A stretch of DNA of 38,420 nt from Candidatus Zixiibacteriota bacterium (lineage in GTDB: Bacteria > Zixibacteria > MSB-5A5 > GN15 > FEB-12), in the NCBI GenBank assembly GCA_034659895.1, contig JAYEIF010000208.1, forward strand, positions 1 to 38,420, written 5' to 3'. Every line of letters starts with the position of its first letter. The first letter of the stretch is position 1. Under the pieces are notes generated by a model that searched no databases, had not been told where the DNA came from, and saw only the letters and a list, made by a program, of their open reading frames with translations. This document shows positions 6,104 through 38,381 of this stretch, piece after piece. The position numbers were made by a program, and so were the translations under genes.

Positions 6104-6114
6104 TTTGATGATGT

Positions 6115-6159: not shown

Positions 6160-6161
6160 AT

Positions 6162-6223: not shown

Positions 6224-6226
6224 AAG

Positions 6227-15187: not shown

Positions 15188-15287
15188 GATGATTGTGCGG
15201 AGTGTATAATTTTGGTGAACCGTAAAATCTCAACATTGGGGGGATGGATAGATAATGAGAATATGAACTGCGCAAAAGAGAAGTTAT

Positions 15288-16181: not shown

Positions 16182-16195
16182 AGGAATAATTTAGT

Positions 16196-17080
16196 ATGCC
16201 AGCACAACTCATTGATGGTAAAGAAGTAGCGAAAAGTGTACGAAAGAATCTGAGGACTCGTATAAAGTCTCTCAAAGCGAAAGGTGTAATTCCTGGACTT
16301 GCGGCGGTGCTTGTGGGGGATGATCCAGCCTCAGGTACTTATGTTCGTTCCAAGGAAAGAGCGTGTGAGAAACTGGGGCTGTACTCAGAGGTTATCAAGA
16401 AACCTGCCACACTGCAACAGAACGAGTTGGTTGAGATAGTAAAGAGTCTAAACGATAATGATAAAATTCACGGTATTCTTGTACAGTCGCCACTACCTGA
16501 ACATATAGACGAATTGTCGGTAACTCTTACGATTAATCCTGACAAGGATGTTGATGGTTTTCATCCGTATAATGTTGGTATGATGCTTCTTGGCCGTCCT
16601 GGATTATTGTCCTGTACCCCTTACGGTATCATCAAGCTTATGTCATACTATCATATTGATCCGTGCGGGAAAGAAGTGGTGGTAGTGGGGCGGTCTAATA
16701 TCGTCGGTAAACCGATATCAGCGATGCTTTTTCAGAAAGCGGATATGGCAAATGCAACTGTTACTATAGCGCACTCCAAAACTAATAATTTGGGTGAGAT
16801 TACACGCAGGGCAGACATCTTAATTGCTGCTATTGGTCAACCGAAAACAATTTCGGCTGATATGGTCAAAGAGGGGGCTGTTGTGATAGATGTAGGCGTA
16901 AATCGGGTTGATGACTCTTCAGCGAAAAAAGGCTACCGCTTAGTGGGTGATGTTGATTTTGACGCCTGCTTTGAGAAAGTCTCATACATCACACCAGTTC
17001 CGGGTGGAGTTGGTCCGATGACAATTGCAATGCTGATGTCAAACACTGTAACAGCAGCAGAGAATCTGTCTATCGAGTAA
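16196..17080 (+). CDS. folD: Bifunctional methylenetetrahydrofolate dehydrogenase/cyclohydrolase
   Basis: GILVQSPLP, KDVDGFHP, GRSNIVGKP, ITPVPGGVGPMT. Confidence 0.98.
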   Translation: MPAQLIDGKEVAKSVRKNLRTRIKSLKAKGVIPGLAAVLVGDDPASGTYVRSKERACEKLGLYSEVIKKPATLQQNELVEIVKSLNDNDKIHGILVQSPLPEHIDELSVTLTINPDKDVDGFHPYNVGMMLLGRPGLLSCTPYGIIKLMSYYHIDPCGKEVVVVGRSNIVGKPISAMLFQKADMANATVTIAHSKTNNLGEITRRADILIAAIGQPKTISADMVKEGAVVIDVGVNRVDDSSAKKGYRLVGDVDFDACFEKVSYITPVPGGVGPMTIAMLMSNTVTAAENLSIE

Positions 17081-21039: not shown

Positions 21040-22865
21040 AGAGTCGGAGTCTTATTATTTCGATTTTTCTTGTAGTGTTCTGGACTGCCATTGCCCTTGC
21101 TGGTGATGCCGGGCGGGAATCACCATTTACCGTAGGCGCCGGTGCTCGCGCTCTCGGTATGGGAGGTGGGTTTACTTCATTAGCCGATGATGCTTCCGCT
21201 ATTTATTACAATCCAGCAGGACTGTCCTTGTTAGATTATCAAGAGGTTTCGTTCATGCACATGACCCTCTTCGAGGGTACGATGTACGATTTTGGTTCAT
21301 GGGCGTATCCTACTTCAACTATGGGTGGCTTTGGTCTTGCCTTCATGTATCTTGGCACAGATGACATTGTCAGACGGGATAACTATAGTCCAGGGGGAAC
21401 CTGTGATTATGCTTATTCGCAATTTCTGTTGTCGTATGGCCGTAGTCTGCAAGGCGGATTGGGAGCAGGGATCTCGCTTAAGTTTGTGAGCCAATCGCTG
21501 GACACATATTCCACTCATGGCATCGGATTAGATTTTGGCATGACAGCCAATTTGCATCGACATATTCAAGCTGGAATTATTGCGCGGGATATTGTTCCGG
21601 CAACTCTTCAATTGGATTCCGATAAAGAGACTGTCTCAACGTCTATTGCAGGAGGATTCGCTATAACGGGAGTGAAATTGTCTGACAATACGCTCTCATC
21701 AGCATCAGTGGAACTCGAGAAAATTGAGAACCGCTCTGTGCGAGTTCATTGTGGTGCCGAAGTGTTGTTTGATGATAAATACTCACTTCGCACCGGATAC
21801 GACAGAGACAATTTTTCTTTCGGTGCTGGTCTTCGATATCAACATTTGAAACTGGACTATGCCTACAAGATTCTTGATTACATAGAAGACAGTCATCGAT
21901 TTTCTGTATCTCTAATGCTTGGCACTTCGGTGTCGGAACAGGTTCGGCGCATAAAGGAGAATGAAATGCGTCGAAGTGACGATATGCTTGAAGTTGAGCG
22001 TCGCCGACAATTTAACTTCTATAGAAAAAAGGGCGGCGAATTCTATGACAACGCCAATCTTGATTCTGCCCTTGTTTATTATCAGCGGGCACTGGCATTT
22101 GATGAGAACAATCAGAAAATAGTAAAAACGATAGCTGACATAGAAGAAGAGCTGCGTATTCAGCAAGAGCAGGAGCAGAAATTGCAGGAAGCCGAGCGGG
22201 AACTGGCAATGACAGTCGAAAACTATTTATCCCATGCACAGAGTTTCTTTGAGAAGAAGTACTATCCTGCGGCATTGGATATGCTGGATTTAATTTTTGA
22301 TATTAATCCGAAGAATTCCAAGGCTCTTAAATTGAAAAAGACTATCTCTGAGGCAGTTAGCAGAGGAATTGTATCTTGTTTGCAGAAAGCCCAGAAAGCT
22401 GAGAGACGCGGTGAACAGGTAGAAGCTATTGGATTATATTCCCGTGTGCTGTATCTTGACCCGACAAATACAAAAGCGCTTCAAGCACAGCAGGAAATTG
22501 CCGAGAAGATGGACTTAGCGCGAATACTTAACGATGGTATGAATCTGTTTCACTCAGGCCGTTATGATGATGCTAAGAGAACATTTTTAACGGTTTTATC
22601 AGCCAGTCCGGAAGAACCTGTAGCGAAGGAGTATATCGAGCGCATCGATTCAGTTTTGACGCATCCTTCTACACTGGAGATGATACAGCATGACCGACAG
22701 GCATGGCAACATTATCTTGATGGTCTGCGATATATGCGTGATCATCAATACAAAATGGCTATTGAAGCTTGGGAAAAGGTCCTCGAAATCTATCCCAACA
22801 ATGAGAACACGCTCCGAAACATCGAGCAGGCTCGTTTGAGAATTAAGTCCAAACCGGGCAATTAA
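21036..22865 (+). CDS. PorV/PorQ-family outer-membrane beta-barrel fused to C-terminal TPR repeats
   Basis: Signal peptide (ALA), GARALGMGG.FTSLADDASAIYYNPAGL, G.GLDFG, LDYAY......SHRFS barrel end; then TPR motifs (YQRALAFDENN, WEKVLEIYPNN). ATGA overlap with the upstream gene. Confidence 0.82.
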   Translation: MKSRSLIISIFLVVFWTAIALAGDAGRESPFTVGAGARALGMGGGFTSLADDASAIYYNPAGLSLLDYQEVSFMHMTLFEGTMYDFGSWAYPTSTMGGFGLAFMYLGTDDIVRRDNYSPGGTCDYAYSQFLLSYGRSLQGGLGAGISLKFVSQSLDTYSTHGIGLDFGMTANLHRHIQAGIIARDIVPATLQLDSDKETVSTSIAGGFAITGVKLSDNTLSSASVELEKIENRSVRVHCGAEVLFDDKYSLRTGYDRDNFSFGAGLRYQHLKLDYAYKILDYIEDSHRFSVSLMLGTSVSEQVRRIKENEMRRSDDMLEVERRRQFNFYRKKGGEFYDNANLDSALVYYQRALAFDENNQKIVKTIADIEEELRIQQEQEQKLQEAERELAMTVENYLSHAQSFFEKKYYPAALDMLDLIFDINPKNSKALKLKKTISEAVSRGIVSCLQKAQKAERRGEQVEAIGLYSRVLYLDPTNTKALQAQQEIAEKMDLARILNDGMNLFHSGRYDDAKRTFLTVLSASPEEPVAKEYIERIDSVLTHPSTLEMIQHDRQAWQHYLDGLRYMRDHQYKMAIEAWEKVLEIYPNNENTLRNIEQARLRIKSKPGN

Positions 22866-22922
22866 GCCAACCATAGTTTTTTAGTTAGACTTAATCTGTC
22901 CTTTCATGTAAATTTTAATAAT

Positions 22923-24932
22923 ATGTGGCGACGTCCGATAAAGGAAATCACAGCAGAGTTTCTCGCTGAAGAGAAGTATCTCGATAGTATCCAGCGCACA
23001 GCTCGGAATAGCTGTGTGGCGGCTGGTATGTCTTCCAAAAATGTAAATGCTGTTCTTCTGGCTATTGAGGAAGGCGCCACGAATATCATTCGACATGCCT
23101 ATCTCTATGAAAAGGGGACTATTCGTTTGCGCGTTGTGATATATCGTAAACTTATAGTTTTTTCGCTTATTGATACAGGTCGTTCATTTCAGGCGTCAAA
23201 GAAGGGTACTCTCGATTTAGAACATCTGGTGGAATCTGGTCGTAAGGGCGGCCTTGGGTTTTACATGATAAATAAGATTATGGATTCCGTGGAGTACATC
23301 TCATCGGCAGGTTACAACGAACTTCGAATGATAAAACGCATTCGCCAGCCATCAGCCACTGCCGTTCCTCTGTTGCGACGGATGACATCACTCAGGGTGA
23401 AGTTTTCGGTGTGGACTATACTGATTATGTTAGTGATTCTGAGTGGCTCCTTTTACTATATTGATAACCAGATATCACATCATGTACAGTCACGTTTGAA
23501 TGATACTGTAACTTCGTTAGGGACCACCATTGCAGCACAGGCATCGGGATACACTATCAATCGGCGGTCCGATGCAGAATTTGATGAGCTTGTTGTAAGC
23601 TATCTCGAGGCGAATTCAGAGTTTCTTAAACAGGTAGTTATCACAGGAACAACAGGTAAAATCGTTGCACATTCCGAAGATATCCATAACATCCGCAAGA
23701 AATATAAATTTCCTGCTGGTATCAATCCCAATAGCTTAAAAATTCCACAGAGATTTGTTCGTGATAGTACAGAGTTGTTTTATATGATGGTTCCAGTCCA
23801 AACCAACAGGGGTAAGGTAGGGATGGTACATATAACTTACAGCTCCGCTTACATACAAGATGACCTTGCTCGGTCTCGTGAGAACACTTTGATGTTAACT
23901 CTGGCGTTGTTGCTTGTCGGTATTTTGGGTGTCTATTTGCTTTCGAGTTACTTTGTTGACCCTATTGTGAAAATTACACAGCGAGTCCGTCGCTTTGCCT
24001 CCGGTGATCTCAAATCGGAATTACCTTTGGAAGGTGCAGAGGAGTTCTTTGAAATCTCACGCGCTTTCAATGAGCTAATGACTCGCGTCAGTCAGGATAA
24101 GGAAAATATCGTGGCTCGCGAGAAGATGGCTAAGGAGATAGAGGTAGCCTCGCATATTCAAAAGACACTACTTCCCAATAAGATGCCGGACTTTTCAGGG
24201 TTGGAGCTGAGTACTTTTTATCGAGCGGCAGGAGTGGTCGGAGGAGACCTTTATGATGTTTTCGAGACGGACCCCGGTCGATATTGTCTTGTTGTGGCTG
24301 ATGTTTCCGGCAAGGGTGTTCCTGCTTCGTTGGTAATGTCAATGTTACGGACGGTAATCCAGATTCATGCCGCACATGAAATTTCAGCCAAAACTACGCT
24401 TATCAAAGTCAATGACTACCTCAGTGACAATATCCCCAAGGGTATGTTCATCACAGTTATGCTGGCTATGTATCACGCCTCAGAGAGAAAACTCAACTTG
24501 GTCTCAGCAGGTCATAACCCGATGCTGCTTTACCGGAGTTCTTCCGGTACTATCGAGAAATTAAACCCGGGTGGTATGCCGGTTGGGATGCCGGATACGC
24601 TCGAGACATCTTTTGATAATCGTATAGAAGAGATTAGTCTTGATCTCGACGATGATGATCTCTTTTTTATGTTCACTGATGGTGTTACCGAAGCTTCCAA
24701 TCGTGACAACGATAAATACGGTATAGAACGTTTAATAAAACTGTTTGAAAAGCAACTAAATGGTGGAGAAGCCAGCCCGAGTACAGAAACTCTCAGCAAA
24801 ACACTGATTGCTGAACTAGATGATTTCTCAGGTTTTACAAAACCATCAGATGATATCACGTTTGTTCTTGCGAGATCTCGCACCTCTGATGAAAAAGCAA
24901 CCGAGACAAAATCTATCAGTGAAGATGATTAG
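22923..24932 (+). CDS. Membrane sensor: RsbW-type HATPase kinase - TM - extracytoplasmic domain - TM - HAMP - SpoIIE/PP2C phosphatase
   Basis: EEGATNIIRHAY, DTGRSF, GGLGFYMI (kinase boxes); two hydrophobic helices; PIVKI...RRFASGDL...EFFEISRAFNEL (HAMP); VGGDLYD, ADVSGKG, SAGHNP, FTDGVTE, DDIT (PP2C). Confidence 0.9.
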   Translation: MWRRPIKEITAEFLAEEKYLDSIQRTARNSCVAAGMSSKNVNAVLLAIEEGATNIIRHAYLYEKGTIRLRVVIYRKLIVFSLIDTGRSFQASKKGTLDLEHLVESGRKGGLGFYMINKIMDSVEYISSAGYNELRMIKRIRQPSATAVPLLRRMTSLRVKFSVWTILIMLVILSGSFYYIDNQISHHVQSRLNDTVTSLGTTIAAQASGYTINRRSDAEFDELVVSYLEANSEFLKQVVITGTTGKIVAHSEDIHNIRKKYKFPAGINPNSLKIPQRFVRDSTELFYMMVPVQTNRGKVGMVHITYSSAYIQDDLARSRENTLMLTLALLLVGILGVYLLSSYFVDPIVKITQRVRRFASGDLKSELPLEGAEEFFEISRAFNELMTRVSQDKENIVAREKMAKEIEVASHIQKTLLPNKMPDFSGLELSTFYRAAGVVGGDLYDVFETDPGRYCLVVADVSGKGVPASLVMSMLRTVIQIHAAHEISAKTTLIKVNDYLSDNIPKGMFITVMLAMYHASERKLNLVSAGHNPMLLYRSSSGTIEKLNPGGMPVGMPDTLETSFDNRIEEISLDLDDDDLFFMFTDGVTEASNRDNDKYGIERLIKLFEKQLNGGEASPSTETLSKTLIAELDDFSGFTKPSDDITFVLARSRTSDEKATETKSISEDD

Positions 24933-27053: not shown

Positions 27054-27081
27054 AATATAATCGGTAAATTTGTTTTGTCAA
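27054..27081 (-). promoter_or_regulatory. Sigma70 promoter for rpsT, overlapping the murJ start codon
   Basis: Minus strand TTGACA (27081-27076), 16 nt, TATATT (27059-27054). Confidence 0.6.
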
Positions 27082-28640
27082 CCAGTAACCAAAGAAAGAG
27101 TTCACTAATTAAATCGGCCGGATTGGTCTCTGGCGCTACTGCTTTCTCAAGGGTTTTGGGCCTTGTTCGTGAGCAGGTTATGGCTTATTTCTTTGGCGCT
27201 GGTATGGCTACCGATGCTTTTGTGACTGCTTTCCGTATTCCAAATCTATTGAGAGATATGTTCGCCGAGGGAGCGCTTTCATCTGCATTTGTTCCTGTAT
27301 TCAAGGATAAAGCTATCAAAGAATCTACAAATGATGCTTTTTCTTTAGCCAATGTAGTTATTTCGGCTGTTCTCGTAGTTGTCGGCCTGATAGTGCTACT
27401 GGGGATTATCGTTACTCCAGTTGTAGTTTACCTTATGGCTAACGGTTTTACCGATACACCCGACAAGTTCGACTTGACTGTCGGACTGGGTCGAGTAATG
27501 ATGGTTTATCTATTGCTGGTTTCTCTTTCGTCTCTGGTTATGGGGATGCTTAATTCTTTTGGGCGGTTTGGGATTCCAGCTTTGTCGCCAGCTATGTTCA
27601 ATTTGGGGACGGTTCTGTCTGTTATTTTTCTTTATAATTATTTTGACCAACCGATTTATACGCTTGCAATTGGTGTGGTTGTTGGTGGAGTGGGACAAGT
27701 CGCTATTCAACTTCCCTCGCTGTTACGCATTGGATACCGATTTCGTTTTCATCTGTCATTTCTCGATGATGGATTGAAGCGAGTTGTGCGGTTGCTAACT
27801 CCGATGATTGTTGGTCTTTCAGCCGGACGTATAAATATCCTGTTGTCGACACTTATAGCCTCGTTTTTGATGGAAGGGGCTATGTCATATTTGAATTATG
27901 CTTACCGTCTTATGCATTTTCCTCTTGGGGTTTTTGCTGTTGCTCTTGGGACGGTTGCTCTGCCAAAAGTGTCAGAAATAGTAGCGCGCGGAGAACATGA
28001 CAAACTCGGCAGAACATTTGAAGAAGCCATTGGAGCCAATCTTTTTTTAGTGGTGCCGTCGGCTGTGTTCTTCGCAGTTATGGGTCGTGAAGTAATCGAA
28101 TTAATCTACCAATGGGGGGCTTTCTCAACAGTTTCCTCAGAGCGAACAGCGCTGGCTTTGATGCACTACTCTTATGGTCTAATTGGTTTTGCCGCAGTGA
28201 GAGTAACAGTATCATTCTTTTATGCCTTCAAAGATTCGCGCAGACCTATGAAAGCTTCAATGATATCCGTAGCGGTGAATCTTATTCTTTATTATCCAAT
28301 GGTACATTTGCTTGATTTTGCAGGTTTGGCAGCGGCAACATCGATTGCCGGACTCGTCAATTTTATTTTGCTGTTGAGTTGGCTACCGTCATTGGGGATT
28401 GATGTCTCTATGGTTCGTCTCGGTCTGAAAACTTTACGAATACTTATAGCGGCAGTCGCTGCATTTTATATAGCGCAAATAGTGCCGTACCAATTTTCAC
28501 TTGACCCGACTACACTGTCCGGCCGAATCCTTCAAGTGATAGTACCGTTGATAGTTGCAGGTATTTTGTATTTGCTTTTTTGTCTGATTTTGAGGGTTAA
28601 GGAACTTAGTTTACTTAAACGTTTCTTTATTCATAAGTGA
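27075..28640 (+). CDS. murJ: Lipid II flippase MurJ (MviN)
   Basis: SRVLGLVRE, DAF..AFRIPNLLR..FAEGALS.AFVP, YAYRLM.FPLG; divergent from rpsT as in many bacteria. TTG start. Confidence 0.96.
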   Translation: MSTSNQRKSSLIKSAGLVSGATAFSRVLGLVREQVMAYFFGAGMATDAFVTAFRIPNLLRDMFAEGALSSAFVPVFKDKAIKESTNDAFSLANVVISAVLVVVGLIVLLGIIVTPVVVYLMANGFTDTPDKFDLTVGLGRVMMVYLLLVSLSSLVMGMLNSFGRFGIPALSPAMFNLGTVLSVIFLYNYFDQPIYTLAIGVVVGGVGQVAIQLPSLLRIGYRFRFHLSFLDDGLKRVVRLLTPMIVGLSAGRINILLSTLIASFLMEGAMSYLNYAYRLMHFPLGVFAVALGTVALPKVSEIVARGEHDKLGRTFEEAIGANLFLVVPSAVFFAVMGREVIELIYQWGAFSTVSSERTALALMHYSYGLIGFAAVRVTVSFFYAFKDSRRPMKASMISVAVNLILYYPMVHLLDFAGLAAATSIAGLVNFILLLSWLPSLGIDVSMVRLGLKTLRILIAAVAAFYIAQIVPYQFSLDPTTLSGRILQVIVPLIVAGILYLLFCLILRVKELSLLKRFFIHK

Positions 28641-28655: not shown

Positions 28656-30929
28656 ATGCTGCGCACTTACCCTTCTCTGTTTCTGCTGTCGATGATAGTT
28701 CCCGGTATTGTGCTTGCCGATCAGATACAGTTACCAGTTTGGGCACTTCTGCTTATATCAGCCTTTGTCGCACTGATTGGAATAATCTGGCTGCGTAAGA
28801 CAAAATTAACTCGAGCTACTCTTGCTCTGGGATTTGCATTACTTTTCTTTTCAGCTTTTCATTATAGTTTGTGTTACTATCCAACTGGTCAAAATCATAT
28901 TGCCAACTATGCCGATGGGGAACAGCGTTATCATATCTATGGTCAGATAATTGACTGGCCAAAATTGCGCGCTGAGCGAACTGAATTTAAGGTCAGTATA
29001 GATTCCTTGATTTCCAGTAATGCGCACCATGTGCACGGAGCAGTATTGCTGAAACTGCATGATACAACGACAAGTCTTCAACGAGGAGATCGCCTTGAGT
29101 TTTACGGTCGTATCTACCCTCTCAGGAATACTGCCACTCCAGGCGGTTTTGATTATCGGCGTTATCTGAATCTTAAGGGCGTACACGGTATTGTATATTT
29201 ATCGACACAGCTTAATGTACGGTTAGATAAGCGGAACCGATACGGATTAATAAATCTTGTGGATAAACTTCGGTCTGCTATTGTTGACAGCTTTAATCGT
29301 AATATGTCTCCTGTTTCAGCAGCGTTGGCGGCAGGGTTCCTTATAGGCGAAACCAGAAACATTCCCACCGAGATTTATTCATGGTTCCGAGATTCGGGGA
29401 CACTGCATCTTCTAGCGGTGTCTGGCTCAAATGTGGCTATTGTATTGGGTTTCTTTATTTTTCTAATGTGGCCTATGCCACTAACACGCCGATTACGGAC
29501 TGCTATTCTTATTGTTGTGATTATTCTGTTTACATTGATTTCGTATGGAGATCCTTCAGTGGTGAGAGCTTCAATTATGGCAATTCTTGTGCTGCTGAGC
29601 AGATTGATTCAGAGGCGAATAGACCTCAATAACATAATCGGTGCAACAGCCGTGGCAATTTTGCTGTATGATCCCACCCAGCTATTTGATGTTGGCTTTC
29701 AGTTGTCCTTTACTACTGCATGGGGATTGATATTTATCACGCCTGTTATTGTGAAACGTTTTGAAGCTGTTAAACATCGGCGGTGGTTTCTATGGATAAT
29801 TCTTCCAGTTGTAGTGTCAATTATTGCGCAGATATGCTCAGGTCCGCTCATAGCTTTTTATTTTCACCGCATCCCTGTTTTATCAGTACCAGCTAATATA
29901 CTGATAGTCATGCTTACTTCAGGTGCTGTGTTTGGGATTCTTGGTATTCTTCTCGCTGATGCTGTTTTGCCGCTATTGGGTATATTTACTGGTTCATTAG
30001 TCAATTGGTTTATGGAACTTATTCTTCACTGTCTGCGATTTTTTGGTGGTGAAGGAGCGCCAATCATTGAAGTAAGTTCGATCCCTGTCTGGTTTGTCCT
30101 TGCCTGTTATGTATATATTGTTTTGCTGGTGTTTGCAGTTCACTCATTGCGAAAGCGCCGAATAGTAGTCCTTTCGCTGGCGGTTTTGGTTAATCTGGTG
30201 TTGTTGAACTTGGCTGTGAATAGCTTTGCCACAGAGGATCATACAGATATGTGGCTTGTGACAGTACCGGGTGGTATTGCGGCTGTTGTCCAGCAAAACG
30301 GCCAACCCAATGGCGATCTTATTATAACAGGGCTGAATGCTCGAGATTATCCAATAGATGATCGTATTCTTGTCCCTATGTTAGAAGGAATGGGGATAGA
30401 GGACATCAATTCCATATTTATTATTTCTTCAGATTATGGAGCTATTGATGATATTGTTAGGACTGCAGACAGGATGGCCGCTGATAGGTTGATAATCGCT
30501 AATCAGTTGGAACATAGTGTTAATGACGTTGTTCGATTCTCTCAGTATCAGCTTAAAGCAACAGAGATCATTGTTACATCTGATATTTCGACTGAACACA
30601 GAGCTGTTGGATACTACCCTTTCCGAAACGGTGTGCTGTTCCAATATCGGGATTCCTCTGTGCTATTTGTGGATGAATTTGTTCCAGACAGGATATCGGA
30701 ATTTTCCAAGGAGAAGCTTGCCCGATTGGTTATAGGTAGAGGAATTGACAAAAACGAGGAACTGACAGATTGGGCTGTTGAGTATGGGGTTTCGTCCATA
30801 GTTGCTCGAAGCATATTTGGGTCGGGATCAAATGAACTCCTATCGGATTCTTTATCATCCCAAAAAGATTTGATAGATATTACGGATCTTAGGCAAGTCG
30901 GAGCGTTGCATATACGGTTCTCTCCCTGA
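28656..30929 (+). CDS. comEC: ComEC/Rec2 DNA-uptake channel
   Basis: PGGFDYRRYL (DUF4131/OB), SGTLHLLAVSGSNV, SVVRASIM, GFQLSF (Competence domain); degenerate C-terminal domain. Confidence 0.92.
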   Translation: MLRTYPSLFLLSMIVPGIVLADQIQLPVWALLLISAFVALIGIIWLRKTKLTRATLALGFALLFFSAFHYSLCYYPTGQNHIANYADGEQRYHIYGQIIDWPKLRAERTEFKVSIDSLISSNAHHVHGAVLLKLHDTTTSLQRGDRLEFYGRIYPLRNTATPGGFDYRRYLNLKGVHGIVYLSTQLNVRLDKRNRYGLINLVDKLRSAIVDSFNRNMSPVSAALAAGFLIGETRNIPTEIYSWFRDSGTLHLLAVSGSNVAIVLGFFIFLMWPMPLTRRLRTAILIVVIILFTLISYGDPSVVRASIMAILVLLSRLIQRRIDLNNIIGATAVAILLYDPTQLFDVGFQLSFTTAWGLIFITPVIVKRFEAVKHRRWFLWIILPVVVSIIAQICSGPLIAFYFHRIPVLSVPANILIVMLTSGAVFGILGILLADAVLPLLGIFTGSLVNWFMELILHCLRFFGGEGAPIIEVSSIPVWFVLACYVYIVLLVFAVHSLRKRRIVVLSLAVLVNLVLLNLAVNSFATEDHTDMWLVTVPGGIAAVVQQNGQPNGDLIITGLNARDYPIDDRILVPMLEGMGIEDINSIFIISSDYGAIDDIVRTADRMAADRLIIANQLEHSVNDVVRFSQYQLKATEIIVTSDISTEHRAVGYYPFRNGVLFQYRDSSVLFVDEFVPDRISEFSKEKLARLVIGRGIDKNEELTDWAVEYGVSSIVARSIFGSGSNELLSDSLSSQKDLIDITDLRQVGALHIRFSP

Positions 30930-31071: not shown

Positions 31072-32274
31072 ATGAGTCTGTCCGGGAATCTAAAAACAGT
31101 GTCGTTTCCTGATATTCTGCAATTGTTGTCTACTGGAAAGAAAACTGGAATTCTTTCTGTTGAGACAGAAACACGAAAAAAGGAAGTAGCATTCAAGGAT
31201 GGTAGTATTGTGTACGCATCCTCAGTGAATTCGACAGAGGATCTTTTGGGAAATATGCTGCTTAACCAAGGGAAAATATCGAAATCCGATCTTGAACGCG
31301 CTATCACGTTACATCGTCAGACAGGACGTCAACTTGGCACCACACTGATAGATATGAAACTTTTTGACAAGGATGAAATAGCTGAGGTACTCAAACAGCA
31401 AATCGAAGAAATTGTTTATAATCTTTTCTCTTGGAGAGATGGTGATTTCACCTTTCGTGAAAATGAGAGCCCCAAGAATGCTCAATTTTTGGTAGCTCTC
31501 CCAACGATGAACGTTGTTATGGAAGGAACGCGACGGATTGATGAATGGATGGAAATACAAAAAGTTCTTCCACCTGATGATGTTATGTTGGCTATTTCCA
31601 AAGCGCCAAAGGTAAAGCGTGAAGAGGTTAAATTATCAATTGAAGAATTTCAGATTCTTGGACTAATTAATGGTGAGAGAACGATAGCTGATTTGATGGA
31701 CCAATCACCAATTGGAGAATTTGTTACATGTCGGGCAATCTACCGTTTAATAAATGGCAATCTGGTTAAATCTGTCGGCAGACGTGATATGGAGAAATCA
31801 CAGAAGGAAGATGAGGAAGAAGTCATTCTATCAATTATTTTCAAGCTGTATAATGTATGTTTTTACCGTATTAACGGTCTCTTTGAGGACGTTCTTGGTG
31901 ATGACAACAAGCTCTATCAATCCTTTGCCGCTCAATATAACAATGGACTGACAGCATTTTTCCCTGGTGTGGACCCCGCATCAAGCAGAGCGCCATCACT
32001 TGAACGCTTCATAAACGCTGTTAAGAAATTACCAGCTCCAATTCGTTTTCACAGGTTGATGCGTGATCTGGACAATATGCTTTCTGACAACCTACAATTT
32101 GTTTACCAACTGCTTGGAATTGGCATTTTCCATAGAAGTGTATCCTCAGTCAAAAGGGAAATTGCCGAGCCATTGGCTATGCGGCGGGAGCTTGTTAAGC
32201 GTTTTGGAGTTGAAGATAATTTCTATATGACAATAAAACGAGCCAACAAGACTGTCAAGTTGGTGAGGGGATAA
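31072..32274 (+). CDS. DUF4388 (PATAN-like) domain protein
   Basis: LSGNL....FPDILQLL..GKKTG.L, F.DG.IV.A, LG..L repeats, LFSW.DG.F.F, EG.RR.DEW, winged-helix-like LINGERTI.DL. Confidence 0.88.
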   Translation: MSLSGNLKTVSFPDILQLLSTGKKTGILSVETETRKKEVAFKDGSIVYASSVNSTEDLLGNMLLNQGKISKSDLERAITLHRQTGRQLGTTLIDMKLFDKDEIAEVLKQQIEEIVYNLFSWRDGDFTFRENESPKNAQFLVALPTMNVVMEGTRRIDEWMEIQKVLPPDDVMLAISKAPKVKREEVKLSIEEFQILGLINGERTIADLMDQSPIGEFVTCRAIYRLINGNLVKSVGRRDMEKSQKEDEEEVILSIIFKLYNVCFYRINGLFEDVLGDDNKLYQSFAAQYNNGLTAFFPGVDPASSRAPSLERFINAVKKLPAPIRFHRLMRDLDNMLSDNLQFVYQLLGIGIFHRSVSSVKREIAEPLAMRRELVKRFGVEDNFYMTIKRANKTVKLVRG

Positions 32275-32277
32275 ATT

Positions 32278-32640
32278 ATGAGCCGAAGTTTCTTTCTTAG
32301 TATTGTATTATTATTGGTTGCAGGTTCAAGAGCTAATGCAGCGAACTTTGCAGTAATTACAGCTCCACCTACAATATTGAACATACTTGTTCTGGTATTT
32401 GGGGTGGTCTGTGTAGGTGTGTCTTTTCACGTGTATTCGGCTGTTCGAGGTGGACGACTTAGTCGAAGTTGGATTTTCTTTTTGGCTGCCTTTGCTTTGT
32501 TAGTCCTTACTCAATTGTTAAGTCTGTTTCACACTCTGGAGGTTATTTCATTGCCCAGTTTTGTGATACCAGCTTGCTTTACAGTTATGGTTGGACTGTT
32601 TTTGAAAGGTGTGCTTGAAGCCAGAAAGACATTTGGTTAA
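32278..32640 (+). CDS. Small membrane protein (signal-like N-terminus plus 3 TM)
   Basis: Four hydrophobic segments, first ending ANA; 3 nt after the DUF4388 stop. Confidence 0.7.
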   Translation: MSRSFFLSIVLLLVAGSRANAANFAVITAPPTILNILVLVFGVVCVGVSFHVYSAVRGGRLSRSWIFFLAAFALLVLTQLLSLFHTLEVISLPSFVIPACFTVMVGLFLKGVLEARKTFG

Positions 32641-32651
32641 GAAAGATATAG

Positions 32652-32684
32652 TTGACATAACTTATTGCTAAATTTATATTTAGC
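32652..32684 (+). promoter_or_regulatory. Sigma70 promoter with an inverted repeat over the -10 box
   Basis: TTGACA (32652-57), 17 nt, TATATT (32675-80); GCTAAAT-N4-ATTTAGC at 32667-32684. Confidence 0.7.
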
Positions 32685-32745
32685 TAATGAGGAAAGAGTA
32701 AATGGTTGCTAACAATGTGATAGAACATGAGTTACAGGGGCACAG

Positions 32746-33618
32746 ATGACAAGTATTTCCGAGATTGATGACCGAATAGCAAAATGTCGGAAGATTCTCG
32801 AAGCCGATCCGAATTCGCAGATTTTTGCTGCCCTATCTGATTCATATCGTAAGAAAGGTGAGTTTGATAAGGCATTTCATGTTTGCCAGGGTGGTTTGAA
32901 AATCCATTCTTCCTATGGAGCGGCTCATGTTGTCATGGCAAAGATTAATCTCGACCGCGGCTTGTATGATTGGGCTGAGTCTGAAGCCAAAAAGGCCGCT
33001 AAGATCGATGGCTGGACAAGGAATGTCGAATTGTTGCTGGCAGAGATATTAATCTATAAGGGAGAGTTTTCCGATGCCATAAAATTGTTGACTCGTCTTC
33101 GTCAATCTGACCCTAGTAACAATCATATAAAAAAGCTGTTGGATATTGCACGACATTTTCCTGAAGAGCAAGAAAAGATAATTGGAAAGTCTGCTTCTAA
33201 TGTCATCTCGTCAGACTCAAACAAAGATAAAGTTGATAATGTTGATAAGGGTTCAGAGACGGTTGAGGAATCTTCTCTTGATGCTGCTGGTTTGATAGAG
33301 CAGGCAATTGAAGTTGTTGGTATCAAAGGAGCTATGTTTGTCAATCTTGATGGGTTTATTATTGAATCCAAGTGGCTTTTGGATATGGATTCCACTCTGT
33401 TTGGAGCAAGTTTCAGTGAGATTATGGATGATCTCAAGGTTAAGTTATTTGAGAGTTCATTCGGACACCTTGAATTTGTTCTGATTGAGACAGAAGATCT
33501 AATTTTTTTGATTGCTCGAATGAAGGATGGATTGTTTCTTTTTGTCGCCGATGAAGACGTCAACTTAGGTACAGTCAAGATGAAAATTGAAAAACTTCTG
33601 AATGTTTACAGGTCATAA
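32746..33618 (+). CDS. TPR plus C-terminal roadblock/LC7 domain protein
   Basis: TPR helices (DPNS..FAALSDSYRKKG.FDKA...C..GL..H); C-terminal GIKGAMFVNLDGFII...FG.LE.VLIE...VNLG.VK. Confidence 0.8.
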   Translation: MTSISEIDDRIAKCRKILEADPNSQIFAALSDSYRKKGEFDKAFHVCQGGLKIHSSYGAAHVVMAKINLDRGLYDWAESEAKKAAKIDGWTRNVELLLAEILIYKGEFSDAIKLLTRLRQSDPSNNHIKKLLDIARHFPEEQEKIIGKSASNVISSDSNKDKVDNVDKGSETVEESSLDAAGLIEQAIEVVGIKGAMFVNLDGFIIESKWLLDMDSTLFGASFSEIMDDLKVKLFESSFGHLEFVLIETEDLIFLIARMKDGLFLFVADEDVNLGTVKMKIEKLLNVYRS

Positions 33619-33633
33619 AGGATACAGTTTGCA

Positions 33634-34623
33634 ATGAGAGTCAATGCGCGTAATATTCGTCAGATAGCAGTGTGGTCACTGGTTCTTCTTGTCCTGCCGA
33701 TTATATATTTTCCAGAAATGTTCGGCACTGATCTGGGGGGAATATCTTTTACCAGTATCCTGGTGGAACTGTTTTTCTACGGGATGGTCCTGTTTTTGTT
33801 TGAACGTAGTGCAACACTGAAGGATATATCACTTGGGACGGTTATCTGTCTTGGGTATCGACTAGTTCTTGGGTCATTACTGGGGCTAATCTTTTTTGTC
33901 ATATACTTTATGGATTTTTCGGTGTCTATGTCACTTTCTCTTGGTAGCTACTTGCCAGTAATCATTTTGCAGGCTCTCGCAACACCATTTATTTTACGAT
34001 CAGCACTTCGTGACTCTGTTTTTTCAAGTAAGGGACGCAGGTTTCATGAAAAATCACCTAAGGTGTACTCAGCTTCAGATAATACAAAGGAGATGACCAC
34101 ACAACCTCAAGTAGTATCTGTATCGCAGAATCGACAGCCCTCAGATTCTACTATCATTGAACCTGACAAGACAACTCGCGAGTTTAAGGTGAAGCATTCT
34201 AATAGTAGCAATACAAACGGTTTTGAGAATGCTACTAAGTATATTGGTGAGAATGGCTCAGTAAAGATGGCGGCGATTGTGGATAGTGAAGGCTTGTTGT
34301 TAGGGAATTTTGTGCGCGGTGGAATCGATCCCGAGGATTGGTCACCGTTGGCTCTTCTCTTTGAGGATAACAACAATCGGCTTCTGAACCGCACAGGGTT
34401 TGGGCAAGTTGAACGGATTGGATTGACAATGGACGATGTACGTGTGATTGTAGCACGTGAGGGAGTTTTTTGTCTGATGGTAGTTGCCGAACGTCAGCAT
34501 GATGAGGTTCTAAATGTAAGGATTGAACAAGCACTAGAGATGATTAGAAAATATACGGCGGAACGGTATAGCAATGTACTGTTTGTAAACGCGGAGAAGG
34601 AATATGTACGAAGTACTGAGTGA
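33634..34623 (+). CDS. Multi-TM membrane protein plus C-terminal roadblock/LC7 domain
   Basis: About 4 N-terminal hydrophobic helices, S/T/Q-rich linker, then VKMAAIVDSEGLLLG...G.G.VE.I.L...LMVVA. Confidence 0.78.
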   Translation: MRVNARNIRQIAVWSLVLLVLPIIYFPEMFGTDLGGISFTSILVELFFYGMVLFLFERSATLKDISLGTVICLGYRLVLGSLLGLIFFVIYFMDFSVSMSLSLGSYLPVIILQALATPFILRSALRDSVFSSKGRRFHEKSPKVYSASDNTKEMTTQPQVVSVSQNRQPSDSTIIEPDKTTREFKVKHSNSSNTNGFENATKYIGENGSVKMAAIVDSEGLLLGNFVRGGIDPEDWSPLALLFEDNNNRLLNRTGFGQVERIGLTMDDVRVIVAREGVFCLMVVAERQHDEVLNVRIEQALEMIRKYTAERYSNVLFVNAEKEYVRSTE

Positions 34624-34945
34624 ATTAAATAAGACAAGTGGTGTGACTGGTTCATTGGTTGTGGGGAATGATGGTATTGTTATAGCAGCAGACCTTGATT
34701 CCTCATATGAAGGGGAGACTGTTGGCGCTTTGGCGGCTTCAATTACGGCAAATATCCAGAAATCATTGAATCGTCTTAATTCCAGCCCTCAAAAGCAAGT
34801 CATGATAGAAGCTGACAAGGGAAAGTTGTTCTTTACGGATGCAGATTTGGGTATTCTGGTTGTAACAACAGCCCAAAAGGTTAATATAGGACTTATCAGG
34901 CTGGAAATTAAGAACGCTGTTGGTCAGTTAAGAATGAAAAAGTAG
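34604..34945 (+). CDS. Stand-alone roadblock/LC7 protein (MglB/MglC-like)
   Basis: L..L....GVTGSLVVGNDGIVIA, VGALAA, IEA..GK, VNIGLIRLE; overlaps the upstream gene by 20 nt. Confidence 0.9.
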   Translation: MYEVLSELNKTSGVTGSLVVGNDGIVIAADLDSSYEGETVGALAASITANIQKSLNRLNSSPQKQVMIEADKGKLFFTDADLGILVVTTAQKVNIGLIRLEIKNAVGQLRMKK

Positions 34946-34978
34946 GACAACGGGAATACTCAACGATGGGATCTGAGC

Positions 34979-36094
34979 ATGGTTTCGATTAATTATTCAG
35001 CACGAGAAGTATGCTGTAAAATTGTGTATTACGGCCCAGGATTGTCGGGCAAGACAACCAATTTGCAATATGTCCACTCGAAGGTGCCGGGGAATACTCG
35101 TGGAGACCTTATATCGTTAGCAACGGAGTCAGATAGAACACTTTATTTTGATTTTTTGCCAATTAACATTGGTACTATCAATGGCTTTGCTGCAAAGTTT
35201 CAACTGTACACTGTCCCCGGACAAGTTTACTACAATGCAACGCGTAAACTTGTGCTTCGCGGTGTGGATGGTATTGTATTTGTCGCTGACAGCCAGCCTG
35301 ATAAGATGGATGAAAACATTGAATCACTGGCTAACTTGGAAGATAATCTAATTGAGTACGGTTATGATATTAACACTTTACCGATGGTAATTCAGTATAA
35401 CAAGCGTGATTTGCCGGGAATACTGTCAGTTGAACAACTCAATGAGCAGCTCAACCCAGTGGGACGGCAGTTCTTTGAGGCTTCCGCGACAATTGGAAAT
35501 GGTGTATTTGACACGCTTAAATTGATAATCAAGTTGGTTCTGGATAAGGCGAAAAAAGCTGGTCAGAAGTCCACTCCAAAGGTTCAGGAGGTGAAGCCCA
35601 GCACTAAACAACCAGTTTCAGCTCAGCAACCGTTACCGAAGCCGGAAGCGTCATCACCTGAATCTTCAGTTTCTTCCTCAGCAGATGATTCTGCCGAGAC
35701 AGATTCTGCCGAGACAGATTCTGTCGAGAGCGTGCCACATAAGACCACTCGTCAGGATGGCGTGCCTTCAGTTTCCTCTGAGAGGGGGACTGAAAAACAG
35801 ACGAGGGAGACGGTGGTCGATAAAGAGCCATTACCCTCAGGGCAATATCGCCCTTACCCAGGAAATACACCTGTTCAGACAAAAGAAAAAAAGATTTCAG
35901 CGACAAAATTTTCACCGGGTTTGACTTCAGAGTCAAGTGAAAATGCTGCAGGACAGAAGGCTCTTCAAGCTAATAATGGTGATGCTGAACAATCCTCGGC
36001 AGAGGGGTATTCTCCATCAATGGCGCCGTCATTGCGACGAAGAACCGAAAAGAAAAAACGAGGGTTTTTTAAACGTTTGTTCGGAATTAAGTAG
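34979..36094 (+). CDS. mglA: MglA-family small GTPase with long C-terminal extension
   Basis: INY..REV..KIVYYGPGLSGKTTNL, DRTLYFDF, LYTVPGQ, QYNKRD, EASA...GVF.TL; about 180 extra residues follow the G domain. Confidence 0.95.
   Translation: MVSINYSAREVCCKIVYYGPGLSGKTTNLQYVHSKVPGNTRGDLISLATESDRTLYFDFLPINIGTINGFAAKFQLYTVPGQVYYNATRKLVLRGVDGIVFVADSQPDKMDENIESLANLEDNLIEYGYDINTLPMVIQYNKRDLPGILSVEQLNEQLNPVGRQFFEASATIGNGVFDTLKLIIKLVLDKAKKAGQKSTPKVQEVKPSTKQPVSAQQPLPKPEASSPESSVSSSADDSAETDSAETDSVESVPHKTTRQDGVPSVSSERGTEKQTRETVVDKEPLPSGQYRPYPGNTPVQTKEKKISATKFSPGLTSESSENAAGQKALQANNGDAEQSSAEGYSPSMAPSLRRRTEKKKRGFFKRLFGIK
35687..35731 (+). repeat. Three tandem 15-bp units (GATTCTGCCGAGACA) in the mglA tail
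   Basis: Encodes DSAET-DSAET-DSVES; two exact copies and one diverged copy. Confidence 0.92.
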
Positions 36095-36111
36095 CCACTA
36101 AGGAGGCATGG

Positions 36112-36603
36112 ATGACTGATAATAGTCTGATCCTCTATGAAGAGGAAATAAAACAGATTGACACTCTTATTTCAAAAATGCTTAAAGCTGCCGAGGCAAA
36201 GTGTGGTCTGCTCGTTGATAAGGATGGTCATTTGATTACCAGACAGGGGTTTACCAGCACATTGGATACTACAGCGTTAGCAGCGCTGCTTGCTGGTTCG
36301 TTTGCTTCTACAAAGGAAATTGCCAAACTTGTTGGGGAACCGGAATTTTCGGTTTTGTTTCATCAAGGGAAGAAAGATCATATACACATGTCGATTGTAG
36401 GCGAACGTTCTATCCTTGTGGTTATTTTTGATGATCGGACAACTATAGGGATGGTGAGATTGTATGCCAAGGAAACCGCTGTTGAACTCACCAAAGTGTT
36501 TGAAAAAGTGACTAACGATTCACGTGAAAAGACTCAAATTAGTGTTTCGAATGATTTTGCCGATGGAGCTCAGGACAGGCTTGACGACATCTTTCAGGAC
36601 TAA
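36112..36603 (+). CDS. mglB: MglB roadblock protein (GAP of MglA)
   Basis: L.LYEEE, LVDKDG.LI, DTT.LA.L.AG, LVGE.EF...FH.G.KD, LVVIFD.RT..G.VRL and an acidic C-terminal helix (LDDIF), as in Myxococcus MglB. Confidence 0.93.
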   Translation: MTDNSLILYEEEIKQIDTLISKMLKAAEAKCGLLVDKDGHLITRQGFTSTLDTTALAALLAGSFASTKEIAKLVGEPEFSVLFHQGKKDHIHMSIVGERSILVVIFDDRTTIGMVRLYAKETAVELTKVFEKVTNDSREKTQISVSNDFADGAQDRLDDIFQD

Positions 36604-36680
36604 GTTTTATATTTGTTACGCTTGTAGCGTTTCGTATTTGATGCGCTGACTACAGGTAATGAAACTCAGGTAAAAATGTT

Positions 36681-38381
36681 ATGATAACAGATCTTGGGGC
36701 AATGCTGGTCAAAGCTGGTAAAGTTACGCCAGAACAGGTTGAGGAAGCTGAGACTACTGCCAAGCAACAAAATATCAAGATTGAAGCAGCTCTTGTACGT
36801 GTAGGAGCATTTGAATCTGAAGATGATATTTCCAAGATAATTGGAAAACAGCTCAAAATTGGTACGTTGCACCTTAAAGATATTGAGCTCAATCCTGAAA
36901 TAGTCAAGCTTATTCCCGTTGATATCGCCCGCAAATTCAAAGTTATTGCTGTTTCCAAACTAAACAAGATTCTTCTCGTCGCTATAAGTGACCCCAATAA
37001 TATATATGTACTTGATGCCGTGAAGTTCATTACCGGCTGTACAGTGCAACCGGTCATCTCCCCCGTGTCGGCAATCGAGAAAGCTATTGACACTTATTAT
37101 ACTGATAGCGGAGCACTTTCAGAGATTGTTAAGGGGATGGAGGATCAAGATGATCTCGAAGTCGTTGAGGCTGAAGATTTGCCCAACGAAAGCGACTTAA
37201 TGTCGGCGATACAGGACAAGCCATTAGTAAAGTTGGTGGACTCTATTATTGCTGATGCAATACGAATGGGTTCCTCCGACATTCATTTCGAGATGTATGA
37301 GAAACGCATTCGAGTACGTTACCGCATTGATGGTGACCTGCGTGAGATGGCGCCATTGCCTTTCAAATATAGGGGAGCAATTGTCTCGCGCTTGAAAATC
37401 ATGGCTGATCTCGATATTTCCGAACGTCGTTTGCCACAAGATGGACGCATAAAGATTAAAATCTCTGGGAGGACTGTCGATCTGCGTGTTTCGGTGCTAC
37501 CGACAATTTTTGGCGAGAAGGTGGTTATGCGAATTCTGGATCCGAACGCTCTTATGGTCGATATGACAAAACTCGGTTTCCGTAAGAATGATCTCAATAA
37601 ATTTCAGGAAGCTATCCATCTGCCTTTTGGAATCATTCTTGTGACCGGTCCTACTGGATCAGGTAAAACCACTACGCTATATTCAGCTCTTAAGCAGATA
37701 AATACAATAGATGTAAATATTATGACCGCAGAAGATCCGGTAGAATTCAACTTTGATGGCATAAATCAGGTAGCAGTAAAATCAAACATTGGTATGACTT
37801 TTGCTGCTGCGCTGCGATCGTTTCTGCGACAAGACCCTGATATCATCATGGTGGGTGAGATTCGAGATACGGAGACTGCCGAGATAGCTATCCGCGCCGC
37901 ATTGACAGGCCACCTTGTTTTTTCAACACTTCACACTAATGATGCTCCTTCAGCGATCAACCGCCTTATCGATATGGGAGTGCCGGGCTATCTGGTGGCA
38001 TCGGCTACAAAGTTGATTATGGCTCAGCGTATGTGCCGTAAGATATGCCAGTCATGCAAGGAAGAAATAAATCTTACAGCGGAGCAAGTCGAGAGTCTTG
38101 GGGAACTTCCAAAAGAACTAAAGCGCAATATACGAGCTTTCAAAGGTCGTGGCTGTCGTGAATGTAATAATACCGGCAAGTCTGGTCGAACAGGTATTTT
38201 TGAAGTCATGCCGATCACACACGCTATAGAAAACCTGATTTTTGAGAGAGCGACAGATTCTGAGATCCGACGAGTAGCTCTCGAAGAAGGTATGTATAGC
38301 CTTCGTATGAGTGCCATTGAGAAAATGAAGGCTGGTATTATAAGTATTGATGAGGTCTTCGCCGTATCTTTTGGTGCATAG
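36681..38381 (+). CDS. pilB: Type IV pilus assembly ATPase PilB (GspE family)
   Basis: SDIHFE, ERRLPQDG, GPTGSGKTTT, TAEDPVE, LRQDPD..MVGEIRD, GHLVFSTLH, CxxC...CxxC zinc motif. Confidence 0.92.
   Translation: MITDLGAMLVKAGKVTPEQVEEAETTAKQQNIKIEAALVRVGAFESEDDISKIIGKQLKIGTLHLKDIELNPEIVKLIPVDIARKFKVIAVSKLNKILLVAISDPNNIYVLDAVKFITGCTVQPVISPVSAIEKAIDTYYTDSGALSEIVKGMEDQDDLEVVEAEDLPNESDLMSAIQDKPLVKLVDSIIADAIRMGSSDIHFEMYEKRIRVRYRIDGDLREMAPLPFKYRGAIVSRLKIMADLDISERRLPQDGRIKIKISGRTVDLRVSVLPTIFGEKVVMRILDPNALMVDMTKLGFRKNDLNKFQEAIHLPFGIILVTGPTGSGKTTTLYSALKQINTIDVNIMTAEDPVEFNFDGINQVAVKSNIGMTFAAALRSFLRQDPDIIMVGEIRDTETAEIAIRAALTGHLVFSTLHTNDAPSAINRLIDMGVPGYLVASATKLIMAQRMCRKICQSCKEEINLTAEQVESLGELPKELKRNIRAFKGRGCRECNNTGKSGRTGIFEVMPITHAIENLIFERATDSEIRRVALEEGMYSLRMSAIEKMKAGIISIDEVFAVSFGA

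Follow-up and report, generated by a model that had tools for sequence, protein, structure and literature searches.

The MglA/MglB pair is the model for the bacterial Ras-like switch that sets cell polarity, and nearly all that is known about it comes, to our knowledge, from the tail-less, soluble type of Myxococcus and Thermus. Makarova is said to have noted in 2006 that PATAN genes occur near mglA/mglB. The pair itself, accessory roadblock proteins of the MglC kind and PATAN genes near mgl genes are all published (PMC4316618). In Myxococcus, a complex of RomR, MglC and MglB has been described, in which the roadblock paralogue MglC contacts MglB and RomR by way of defined surface patches, the FDI and KRR regions (PMC10329633), and M. 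xanthus MglA and the tetratricopeptide repeat (TPR) protein SgmX stimulate pili (PMC7519303). Here we analysed a 38,420-nucleotide (nt) contig of a Candidatus Zixiibacteriota genome (JAYEIF010000208.1; the window, for short), at the 3′ end of which eight genes, g1 to g8, encode a tailed MglA, MglB, three further roadblock proteins, a PATAN protein, a small hydrophobic protein and the pilus ATPase PilB. Together with a survey of 80 MglA loci, this cluster suggests a second type of MglA module, in which the GTPase has its own membrane tether and always stands alongside extra roadblocks.

Compared with the Myxococcus and Thermus systems, the core of the cluster is familiar: the G domain of MglA aligns end to end with its motifs kept, MglB is matched over its full length, extra roadblock proteins accompany the pair (MglC in those systems) and there is a link to type IV pili. 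The differences lie around this core. The gene order is mglA-mglB rather than mglB-mglA; MglA continues into a tail of some 175 residues, the end of which is a probable membrane anchor; three accessory roadblock proteins are present, one with four predicted membrane helices and one with a TPR arm; and the G domains fall across a well-supported branch from the classical ones. A literature search that covered few subscription journals and no supplements found no description of a tailed or membrane-anchored MglA, of roadblock domains fused to membrane or TPR domains, or of MglA in Zixibacteria; some of the neighbourhoods may be included in supplementary table S2 of PMC4316618.

Roadblock proteins and a tailed MglA beside pilB

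All eight open reading frames (ORFs) lie on the + strand in the same orientation and fill positions 31072-38381, with gaps from g1 to g8 of 3, 105, 15, -20 (an overlap), 33, 17 and 77 nt, so that an earlier note made from the letters of this DNA was right to describe a series of co-oriented, mostly tightly spaced genes. The domains that it had named (DUF4388, TPR-roadblock, membrane-roadblock, stand-alone roadblock, MglA, MglB and PilB) were recovered by Pfam and NCBIfam profile scans, by phmmer alignments and by AlphaFold2 models compared with Foldseek. The scan that it had proposed for Robl_LC7, DUF4388 and TPR found matches in the predicted genes, that of Robl_LC7 to g4 only at the low score given in Table 1. 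In the host assembly (2.36 Mb in 253 contigs), all three Pfam roadblock matches of a genome-wide scan fall inside the cluster and g6 is the sole MglA match; the cluster is the sole MglA/MglB-type polarity switch found in this genome.

Residues 3-196 of g6 align with M. xanthus MglA (E 4e-77, phmmer against solved structures), and the alignment shows GPGLSGKTT, DRTL, TVPGQ and NKRD. The group 1 MglA signature of Wuichet and Sogaard-Andersen (2014), that is, the P-loop, an intrinsic Arg finger (R53 in M. xanthus), a Thr-x-x-Gly-Gln switch II and NKxD, is complete, and none of the 20 orthologues departs from it in the columns of the P-loop, R53, TVPGQ and NKxD. The gene coupling of group 1 (mglB within four genes) is also present, with mglB starting 17 nt after g6 and coupling found in 20/20 loci. 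The protein falls outside the single-domain length class of under 240 amino acids (aa), as g6 has 371 aa and its orthologues 337-415 aa. The comparative MglA study kept 449 of 488 sequences, those under 240 aa (Table 1 of PMC4316618), and the tailed class seemingly escaped description because this main study left out longer proteins.

Residues 197-371 of g6 have no counterpart in M. xanthus MglA, and the tail that had been ascribed to this protein is real. It comprises about 175 residues (141-219 aa among orthologues), with a middle part that varies in length and sequence, is 8-20% hydrophobic and is rich in Pro, Ser, Thr, Glu, Gln, Lys, Asp, Gly and Ala. Three motifs are conserved, YRPYPG (about 290-295), P-x-MAPSLRRR (346-355) and the terminal KKRGFFKRLFGIK, the last of which is kept in kind in 20/20 orthologues. 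Judged by sequence, the tail is a variable linker with three short conserved motifs and a MinD-like basic-aromatic end, not a mere extension. We compared this end with E. coli MinD because no true MinD was found in the genome (best TIGR01968 match 85.7 bits, against a cut-off of 212.9). E. coli MinD ends with the 11 residues KKGFLKRLFGG, and 8 of 9 residues agree with KKRGFFKRLFGIK over GF(L/F)KRLFG. In MinD, residues 256-270 are a membrane-targeting amphipathic helix (PMC8155659). Both motifs are basic-aromatic and stand at the extreme C terminus, whereas that of g6 is carried by a GTPase of a different fold and ends a long disordered linker. We regard the end of g6 as a candidate, and a probable, membrane anchor.

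The earlier note had counted four distinct roadblock domains in the cluster, two of them fused, one to TPRs and one to a membrane domain, and folds and profiles agree with that count. AlphaFold2 models of g3 and g4, built on 20-row alignments of orthologues, give residues 180-289 of g3 and 196-316 of g4 the same succession of elements, alpha-beta-beta-alpha-beta-beta-beta-alpha, with a predicted local distance difference test score (pLDDT) of about 90. The top Foldseek matches of the two proteins are Streptomyces 3kye, Asgard 7yh1 and 9jue, MglB 6hjm and LAMTOR2 (target template-modelling (TM) scores 0.77-0.86, probability 1.00). These matches, together with hhalign comparisons with g5, are the reason why both fused C-terminal domains are taken to be roadblock folds, a point on which the earlier note had made its case depend.

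In g3 (mean pLDDT 84.5), the model has TPR helices at residues 4-152 and a disordered linker at 147-175, followed by the roadblock domain. Its target TM scores are 0.84 with 7yh1 and 0.86 with LAMTOR2 (5y3a), and its C-terminal domain matches g5 with an hhalign probability of 98.1 (E 8e-14); by profile, Robl_LC7 scores 22.2 bits against a cut-off of 23 and reached 24.6 bits in the genome scan. The model of g4 has hydrophobic helices at 5-128 and a disordered linker at 134-192. Foldseek matched it to 3kye (E 2e-7, target TM score 0.77) and to MglB 6hjm (0.80), and hhalign matched its C-terminal domain to g5 (probability 62.7, E 7e-5). Positive charges at the N terminus and past the last helix point to four membrane helices in g4 with both ends in the cytoplasm. 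The ESM Atlas clusters nearest to g4 occur most often in Zixiibacteriota.

The stand-alone roadblock protein g5 begins 20 nt before the end of g4, an overlap also seen in relatives, and has a mean column identity of 77% across 20 orthologues. Its closest solved sequences are the Asgard roadblock 7yh1 (E 1e-8) and LAMTOR2 (E 5e-3), and up to an E value of 1 its matches to solved sequences include none named MglC. Where the earlier note had proposed AlphaFold-Multimer for all roadblock pairs, one pair, g4 residues 190-329 with g5, was run. The prediction reached an ipSAE of 0.55 (runs 0.55, 0.55 and 0.60; best of three controls 0.10), with at least 76% of contacts shared between runs and a partner pLDDT of at least 80. 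In calibration, the mark was reached by 58 of 80 solved complexes and by 2 of 110 mismatched pairs; those that reached it at an ipSAE of 0.60 or below comprised just 7 of the 80 solved complexes and both of the mismatches, and the pass may mirror mere likeness because roadblock dimers have already been solved. The prediction lends weak support to a pairing of the g4 C-terminal domain with g5.

The remaining partners of the switch are closer to described proteins. Residues 5-162 of g7 align with residues 4-158 of M. xanthus MglB (E 7e-38, phmmer), including the region of the C-terminal helix (described in PMC6785124), and g7 scores 100 bits against the NCBIfam equivalog for Thermus-type MglB, below its cut-off of 200. 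Its end recurs as D-D/N-I-F-Q/K/R-D/E in most of 20 orthologues, with one relative (L020) deviating. PilB (g8) also carries the T2SSE and MshEN Pfam domains, and the contig ends after it. In relatives, a PilT-like gene follows pilB wherever the contig continues, and in one of them (L019) the genes after pilB encode a T2SSE protein (PilT-like), a T2SSF protein (PilC) and a PAS-HisKA-HATPase protein with a 6TM_PilS domain. In L020 (genome G017), PilB matches at 5696-7392 in three pieces in different frames, which suggests a frameshift or an assembly error.

At the other end of the cluster, g1 spans positions 1-121 of the 122 in PF14332, a whole-length PATAN (DUF4388) match. Within this domain, residues 58-110 form an MshEN-like alpha-helical insertion, of which residues 59-110 match the NCBIfam cyclic di-GMP (c-di-GMP) motif domain NF053729 (49.7 bits against a cut-off of 38). 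The insertion consists of two 24-residue half-motifs with a 5-residue spacer, as in the definition of MshEN (PMC5013675); the tandem halves are kept in 21/21 sequences, as are the MshEN spacing and most hydrophobic positions in g1 itself. PATAN regulators of cyanobacteria (PatA-type PixE and PixG) likewise combine PATAN with a two-repeat alpha-helical insertion, here found beside mglA/mglB and pilB; unlike them, g1 has no receiver domain. Its C-terminal region of about 235 aa is uncharacterized, with no family match in Pfam or NCBIfam, and a search of the ESM Atlas with g1 returned PATAN clusters only and no identity for this region. Two more PATAN-domain genes lie elsewhere in the genome (ORFs of 294 aa and 718 aa, on contigs C56 and C19), which also has three GGDEF matches.

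Conservation and spread of the cluster

To assess conservation, we compared 20 stretches around MglA from relatives in four families of the order. MurJ, ComEC, g1, g3, g4, g5, MglA, MglB and PilB stand in identical order in 20 of 20 loci, and tblastn detected g2 in 18 of 20 (not in L023 or L026). The expectation that the cluster would be syntenic in relatives thus held in every locus and in all four families, and the gene arrangement is not due to chance. More widely, MglA was matched in 30 of 31 related genomes (ORFs of 321-422 aa) and the g4 profile in 149 of 151 genomes sampled across the phylum, with the roadblock part alone in a few families (ORFs of 134-179 aa).

Two observations concern individual matches. 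The only close relative without an MglA match, G006 (same family, 96% complete), has no g4 match either, and three other genomes of its genus do have g4; the whole module may have been lost in G006 or may be hidden in an assembly gap. Many g4-profile matches (in G035, G018, G076 and others) carry '1 TGA' inside the match, which may reflect a match that runs past the g4 stop into the overlapping g5.

We then looked beyond the phylum. A search of 1.84 billion protein representatives with the tailed MglA (E up to 0.001) returned 6729 matches. The best 150 of these have 255-800 aa, with at least 61 residues (median 252) past the G domain; because a tailed query favours tailed proteins, these figures give no share of all MglAs. 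A simple classifier assigned a basic-aromatic end to 39 of the best 150 and a terminal uncharged hydrophobic stretch of at least 18 residues (transmembrane-like) to 16, and several of the 95 unclassified ends resemble these classes by eye. Among 3000 shuffled tails, the same classifier found two basic-aromatic ends and no transmembrane-like end.

Profiles built from this cluster were also used to scan 80 MglA loci in named genomes of many phyla; the loci include kin, and the counts are descriptive, not a test. With a tailed MglA, mglB lies downstream in 31 of 33 loci, and with a tail-less one it lies upstream in 42 of 47, which bears out the claim that the order here is reversed relative to Myxococcus. 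Of the five tail-less loci without an upstream call, three are miscalls from over-long ORF calls. Extra roadblock genes accompany all 33 tailed MglAs and 5 of the 47 tail-less ones (one of the five, L087, is truncated by the contig end); a PATAN gene is nearby in 27/33 and 5/47, and pilB is adjacent in 21/33 and 0/47. A g5-like gene stands directly upstream of mglA in most of the 33 tailed loci.

Loci labelled Planctomycetota, Fibrobacteria, BRC1 and Gemmatimonadota repeat the combination of an extra roadblock with a tailed MglA and mglB downstream of it, whether or not TPR and PATAN genes are present, and the core of the cluster is therefore not confined to Zixibacteria. Planctomycetota-labelled loci contain PATAN, TPR, a g5-like roadblock, an MglA with a hydrophobic end and MglB; in four of them, the classifier found the hydrophobic stretch of at least 18 residues. 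In a Fibrobacteria locus, two roadblock genes accompany a 568-aa MglA that ends KKKGFFDGLFKKDK. The membrane-anchored roadblock and adjacency to pilB were seen in Zixibacteria-type loci only, which account for all 21 survey loci with an adjacent pilB (0/12 among the other tailed loci). The neighbourhood survey proposed in the earlier note thus returned the synteny expected in Zixibacteria and, for the core, a range that extends to other phyla.

A maximum-likelihood tree of 81 G domains (a quick search, unrooted) places 42 classical domains on one side of a single branch (SH-aLRT 98) and 39 expanded ones on the other, the latter comprising 34 tailed MglAs and 5 tail-less MglAs with extra roadblocks. 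Both module types can share a genome, because the assembly of the Gemmatimonadota metagenome-assembled genome isolate ZCIRG16 carries each (L062 and L071): a classical mglB-mglA locus with a 192-aa MglA, and an expanded locus with PATAN, TPR, a g5-like roadblock, an MglB-like gene and a 209-aa MglA. Nine loci with Ignavibacteria-type or Terriglobales labels (L039, L040, L044, L049, L050, L052, L054, L057 and L058) have the full Zixibacteria-type cluster, and their MglAs group inside the Zixibacteria set; these loci may have been labelled wrongly.

Other systems combine GTPases of this kind with roadblock proteins. The actinobacterial conservons (CvnA-D) also place an MglA-family GTPase and a roadblock protein in a membrane-associated multi-protein system (PMC4316618), but the present cluster has no CvnA-type kinase and no CvnC/DUF742, and its MglA is of group 1 with an intrinsic Arg. 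The earlier note had drawn a parallel with eukaryotic Ragulator. As in Ragulator-Rag and Ras, several roadblock domains held at a membrane would stand beside a small GTPase that has a variable tail and a basic terminal anchor, and LAMTOR2 is among the closest folds, although no closer than bacterial and archaeal roadblocks. The likeness is limited to the roadblock count and the membrane tether. Two defining features fail, and the parallel is one of analogy only for that reason: Pfam and NCBIfam scans found among the cluster genes no LAMTOR1-like lipidated subunit, which in Ragulator wraps two roadblock heterodimers, and the GTPase, which is not a Rag, has a low-complexity tail where a C-terminal roadblock domain would be expected. 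Anchoring here would also rely on membrane helices and an amphipathic helix rather than on lipids.

A broader reading, which we offer tentatively and hold possible rather than probable, is that these loci represent a second, widespread class of bacterial MglA that works like eukaryotic membrane GTPases, with an anchored disordered tail and a membrane-bound, hetero-oligomeric roadblock platform. If so, Zixibacteria and Fibrobacteria would use an amphipathic helix like that of MinD as the anchor, Planctomycetota would use a membrane helix as a tail anchor, and no other form would be as elaborate as the Zixibacteria cluster with its direct wiring to the pilus motor. Bacteria would then have evolved the membrane cycling of a Ras-like GTPase on a roadblock platform either earlier than Ragulator-Rag and Ras/Rab anchoring or independently of them. 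Archaeal Rab-like GTPases are reported to have no C-terminal extension, polybasic region or other membrane signal (PMC4915359), which is why a tailed, anchored prokaryotic small GTPase would bear on the origin of membrane-bound GTPase circuits.

Proposed working of the cluster and its alternatives

We infer the binding, membrane attachment and function set out here, and hold the whole to be moderately probable: the cluster would encode an MglA/MglB switch that operates at the cytoplasmic membrane together with a roadblock scaffold and is coupled to the motor of the type IVa pilus. The flexible, hypervariable-like tail would keep MglA near the membrane, where MglA-GTP would act, with the final 13 residues serving as a basic amphipathic anchor of the MinD kind. 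The GTPase-activating protein (GAP) that switches MglA off would be MglB, by means of which a C-terminal helix is also supplied. The proteins g3, g4 and g5 would build membrane-bound roadblock platforms, in which g4 with its four predicted membrane helices, probably paired with g5 (their genes overlap), would fix the platform in the membrane, and the TPR arm of g3 would be free to bind partners. Such platforms may set where MglB or MglA sits, much like MglC together with RomR and MglB in Myxococcus; SgmX offers an analogy for g3, as TPR proteins appear to recur as MglA partners for pili. In yeast two-hybrid assays, a Synechocystis PATAN domain binds the N-terminal part of PilB1 and PilC's N-terminal domain (10.1101/2021.06.11.447907), and g1 may similarly join the switch to PilB and PilC, with its MshEN-like insertion possibly sensing c-di-GMP. 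The output would be the place and timing of pilus extension.

Several points weigh against this account. Roadblock domains dimerize generically, and for this reason the pairings among those of the cluster cannot be deduced from sequence. Among its matches to solved sequences, g5 is no nearer to MglB or MglC than to archaeal and eukaryotic roadblocks, and homology gives no guide to its role. For the 11 C-terminal residues of g6, the hydrophobic moment is 0.40, and shuffled versions have a mean of 0.44, with 54% reaching 0.40; as the moment is no higher than that of shuffles, the anchor reading leans on conservation, position and likeness to MinD. A single copy of the E. coli MinD sequence binds the membrane weakly and needs dimerization (PMC8155659), and a monomeric MglA might for that reason bind the membrane just transiently. 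In g1, the Arg at position 1 of the MshEN motif is replaced in both halves (Leu, Gln) and the first half ends in His rather than Gln at position 24, both in 21/21 sequences; these two changes make binding of c-di-GMP by g1 doubtful. Position 10 of the second half is Lys in place of Gly, with Lys, Gly, Asn, Gln or Glu in orthologues. As for the wider class, the sample of 150 best matches is biased to tailed MglAs by its query, and the labels 'Ignavibacteriales', 'Terriglobales' and 'Bifidobacteriales' come from records and may be wrong assignments.

The extra roadblocks could instead be alternative catalytic regulators, with g5 and MglB as a heterodimeric GAP or a roadblock pair as an exchange factor that replaces RomR/RomX, which we think rather unlikely. 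The position of the g5-like gene just upstream of tailed mglA, retained in Planctomycetota loci that have no other extra roadblock, would suit such a role. M. xanthus MglA binds the MglB dimer asymmetrically (PMC11016934), an asymmetry that a heterodimer could fix, and eukaryotic roadblock and longin heterodimers act as guanine nucleotide exchange factors (PMC3747258). However, g7 alone resembles M. xanthus MglB over its full length, C-terminal part included, so that a classical homodimeric GAP would suffice, and the overlap of g4 and g5 indicates g4, not MglB, as the partner of g5.

A second alternative concerns the tail, whose terminal motif could be a protein-docking peptide or a regulatory or degradation tag, with the tail recruiting partners such as the TPR arm of g3. 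TPR domains commonly bind short peptides, YRPYPG and MAPSLRRR look like docking sites, and the unexceptional hydrophobic moment of the MglA end fits this alternative too. We nevertheless regard it as unlikely, since the end shares 8/9 residues with a tested membrane-targeting sequence of MinD (PMC8155659) and since, in other lineages, a hydrophobic stretch of at least 18 residues takes its place (16 of the 150 best representatives; four Planctomycetota loci). A shared role in membrane anchoring would account for both forms of the end, and docking would not.

As to the output, the module might steer a competence (DNA-uptake) pilus that works with ComEC in natural transformation, rather than surface motility. 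In many bacteria DNA is taken up by means of type IV pili, comEC immediately precedes g1 in 20/20 loci, and the pilus genes seen beside the module are motor genes only (pilB, pilT and pilC). The 142-nt gap between comEC and g1 and the presence of murJ, a housekeeping gene, before comEC mean, however, that this adjacency may be simple conserved order, and PilT and the PilS-like kinase suit a retractile, regulated motility pilus at least equally; we consider a dedicated role in competence distinctly unlikely. Adjacency to pilB could finally be historical, with the module governing a different polar process, for instance the placing of the flagellum, division or growth of the envelope (FlhA is encoded in the genome, MurJ and ComEC are likewise conserved neighbours and pilB is adjacent in 0/12 tailed loci outside the Zixibacteria type), but this is very improbable given that pilB follows mglB in 20/20 relatives' loci and 21/21 Zixibacteria-type survey loci and that PATAN and MglA have been tied experimentally to type IV pili in other bacteria.

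Coordinates, neighbouring genes and minor observations

Positions of the cluster genes and of their two upstream neighbours are collected in Table 1. The listing of MurJ and ComEC does not imply membership of the module. The small protein g2 has an N-terminal signal-like segment and about three predicted membrane helices.

Table 1 Genes of the mgl cluster and its upstream neighbours in the window
Gene	Product	Length	Position	Strand	Basis or features
murJ	MurJ		27075-28640	+	Pfam MurJ, E 2e-110; upstream neighbour
comEC	ComEC		28656-30929	+	Pfam Competence and DUF4131; upstream neighbour
g1	PATAN (DUF4388) protein	400 aa	31072-32274	+	Pfam PF14332, E 2e-36, residues 4-159
g2	Small hydrophobic protein	120 aa	32278-32640	+	No family in Pfam or NCBIfam
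g3	TPR-roadblock fusion	290 aa	32746-33618	+	TPR_19, TPR_2 and TPR_14 above cut-offs; Robl_LC7 borderline
g4	Membrane-anchored roadblock protein (predicted)	329 aa	33634-34623	+	AlphaFold2 and Foldseek; Robl_LC7 13.2 bits by sequence
g5	Stand-alone roadblock protein	113 aa	34604-34945	+	Robl_LC7 56.4 bits
g6	MglA-type GTPase	371 aa	34979-36094	+	G domain 1-196; tail 197-371
g7	MglB	163 aa	36112-36603	+	Robl_LC7 49.9 bits; C-terminal segment ends DDIFQD
g8	PilB, type IVa pilus extension ATPase	566 aa	36681-38381	+	TIGR02538 696.6 bits, cut-off 675.65

The earlier note had called the host flagellated, which the FlhA match (914 bits) makes plausible. The window was found in four DNA runs, all from one brine-metagenome study, and in no RNA run among those listed.

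Promoter and terminator scans of the region gave matches at consensus level only. The best sigma-70-like match (11/12 positions) lies at 32652-32680, in the 105-nt gap between g2 and g3, and hints at an internal promoter there. A weak terminator-like hairpin is located at 36618-36630, 3′ of mglB.

Further upstream in the window, genes for RNase Y, a YmdB-like phosphoesterase and FolD are consecutive at 13598-17080; RNase Y beside YmdB is a pairing familiar from Bacillus. Three consecutive genes follow at 17347-24932. The first encodes a 1230-aa protein with a C-terminal FlgD_ig domain as its sole match, the second, which overlaps it by 4 nt, a 609-aa TPR/UPF0164 protein, and the third a HATPase_c_2-HAMP-SpoIIE protein.

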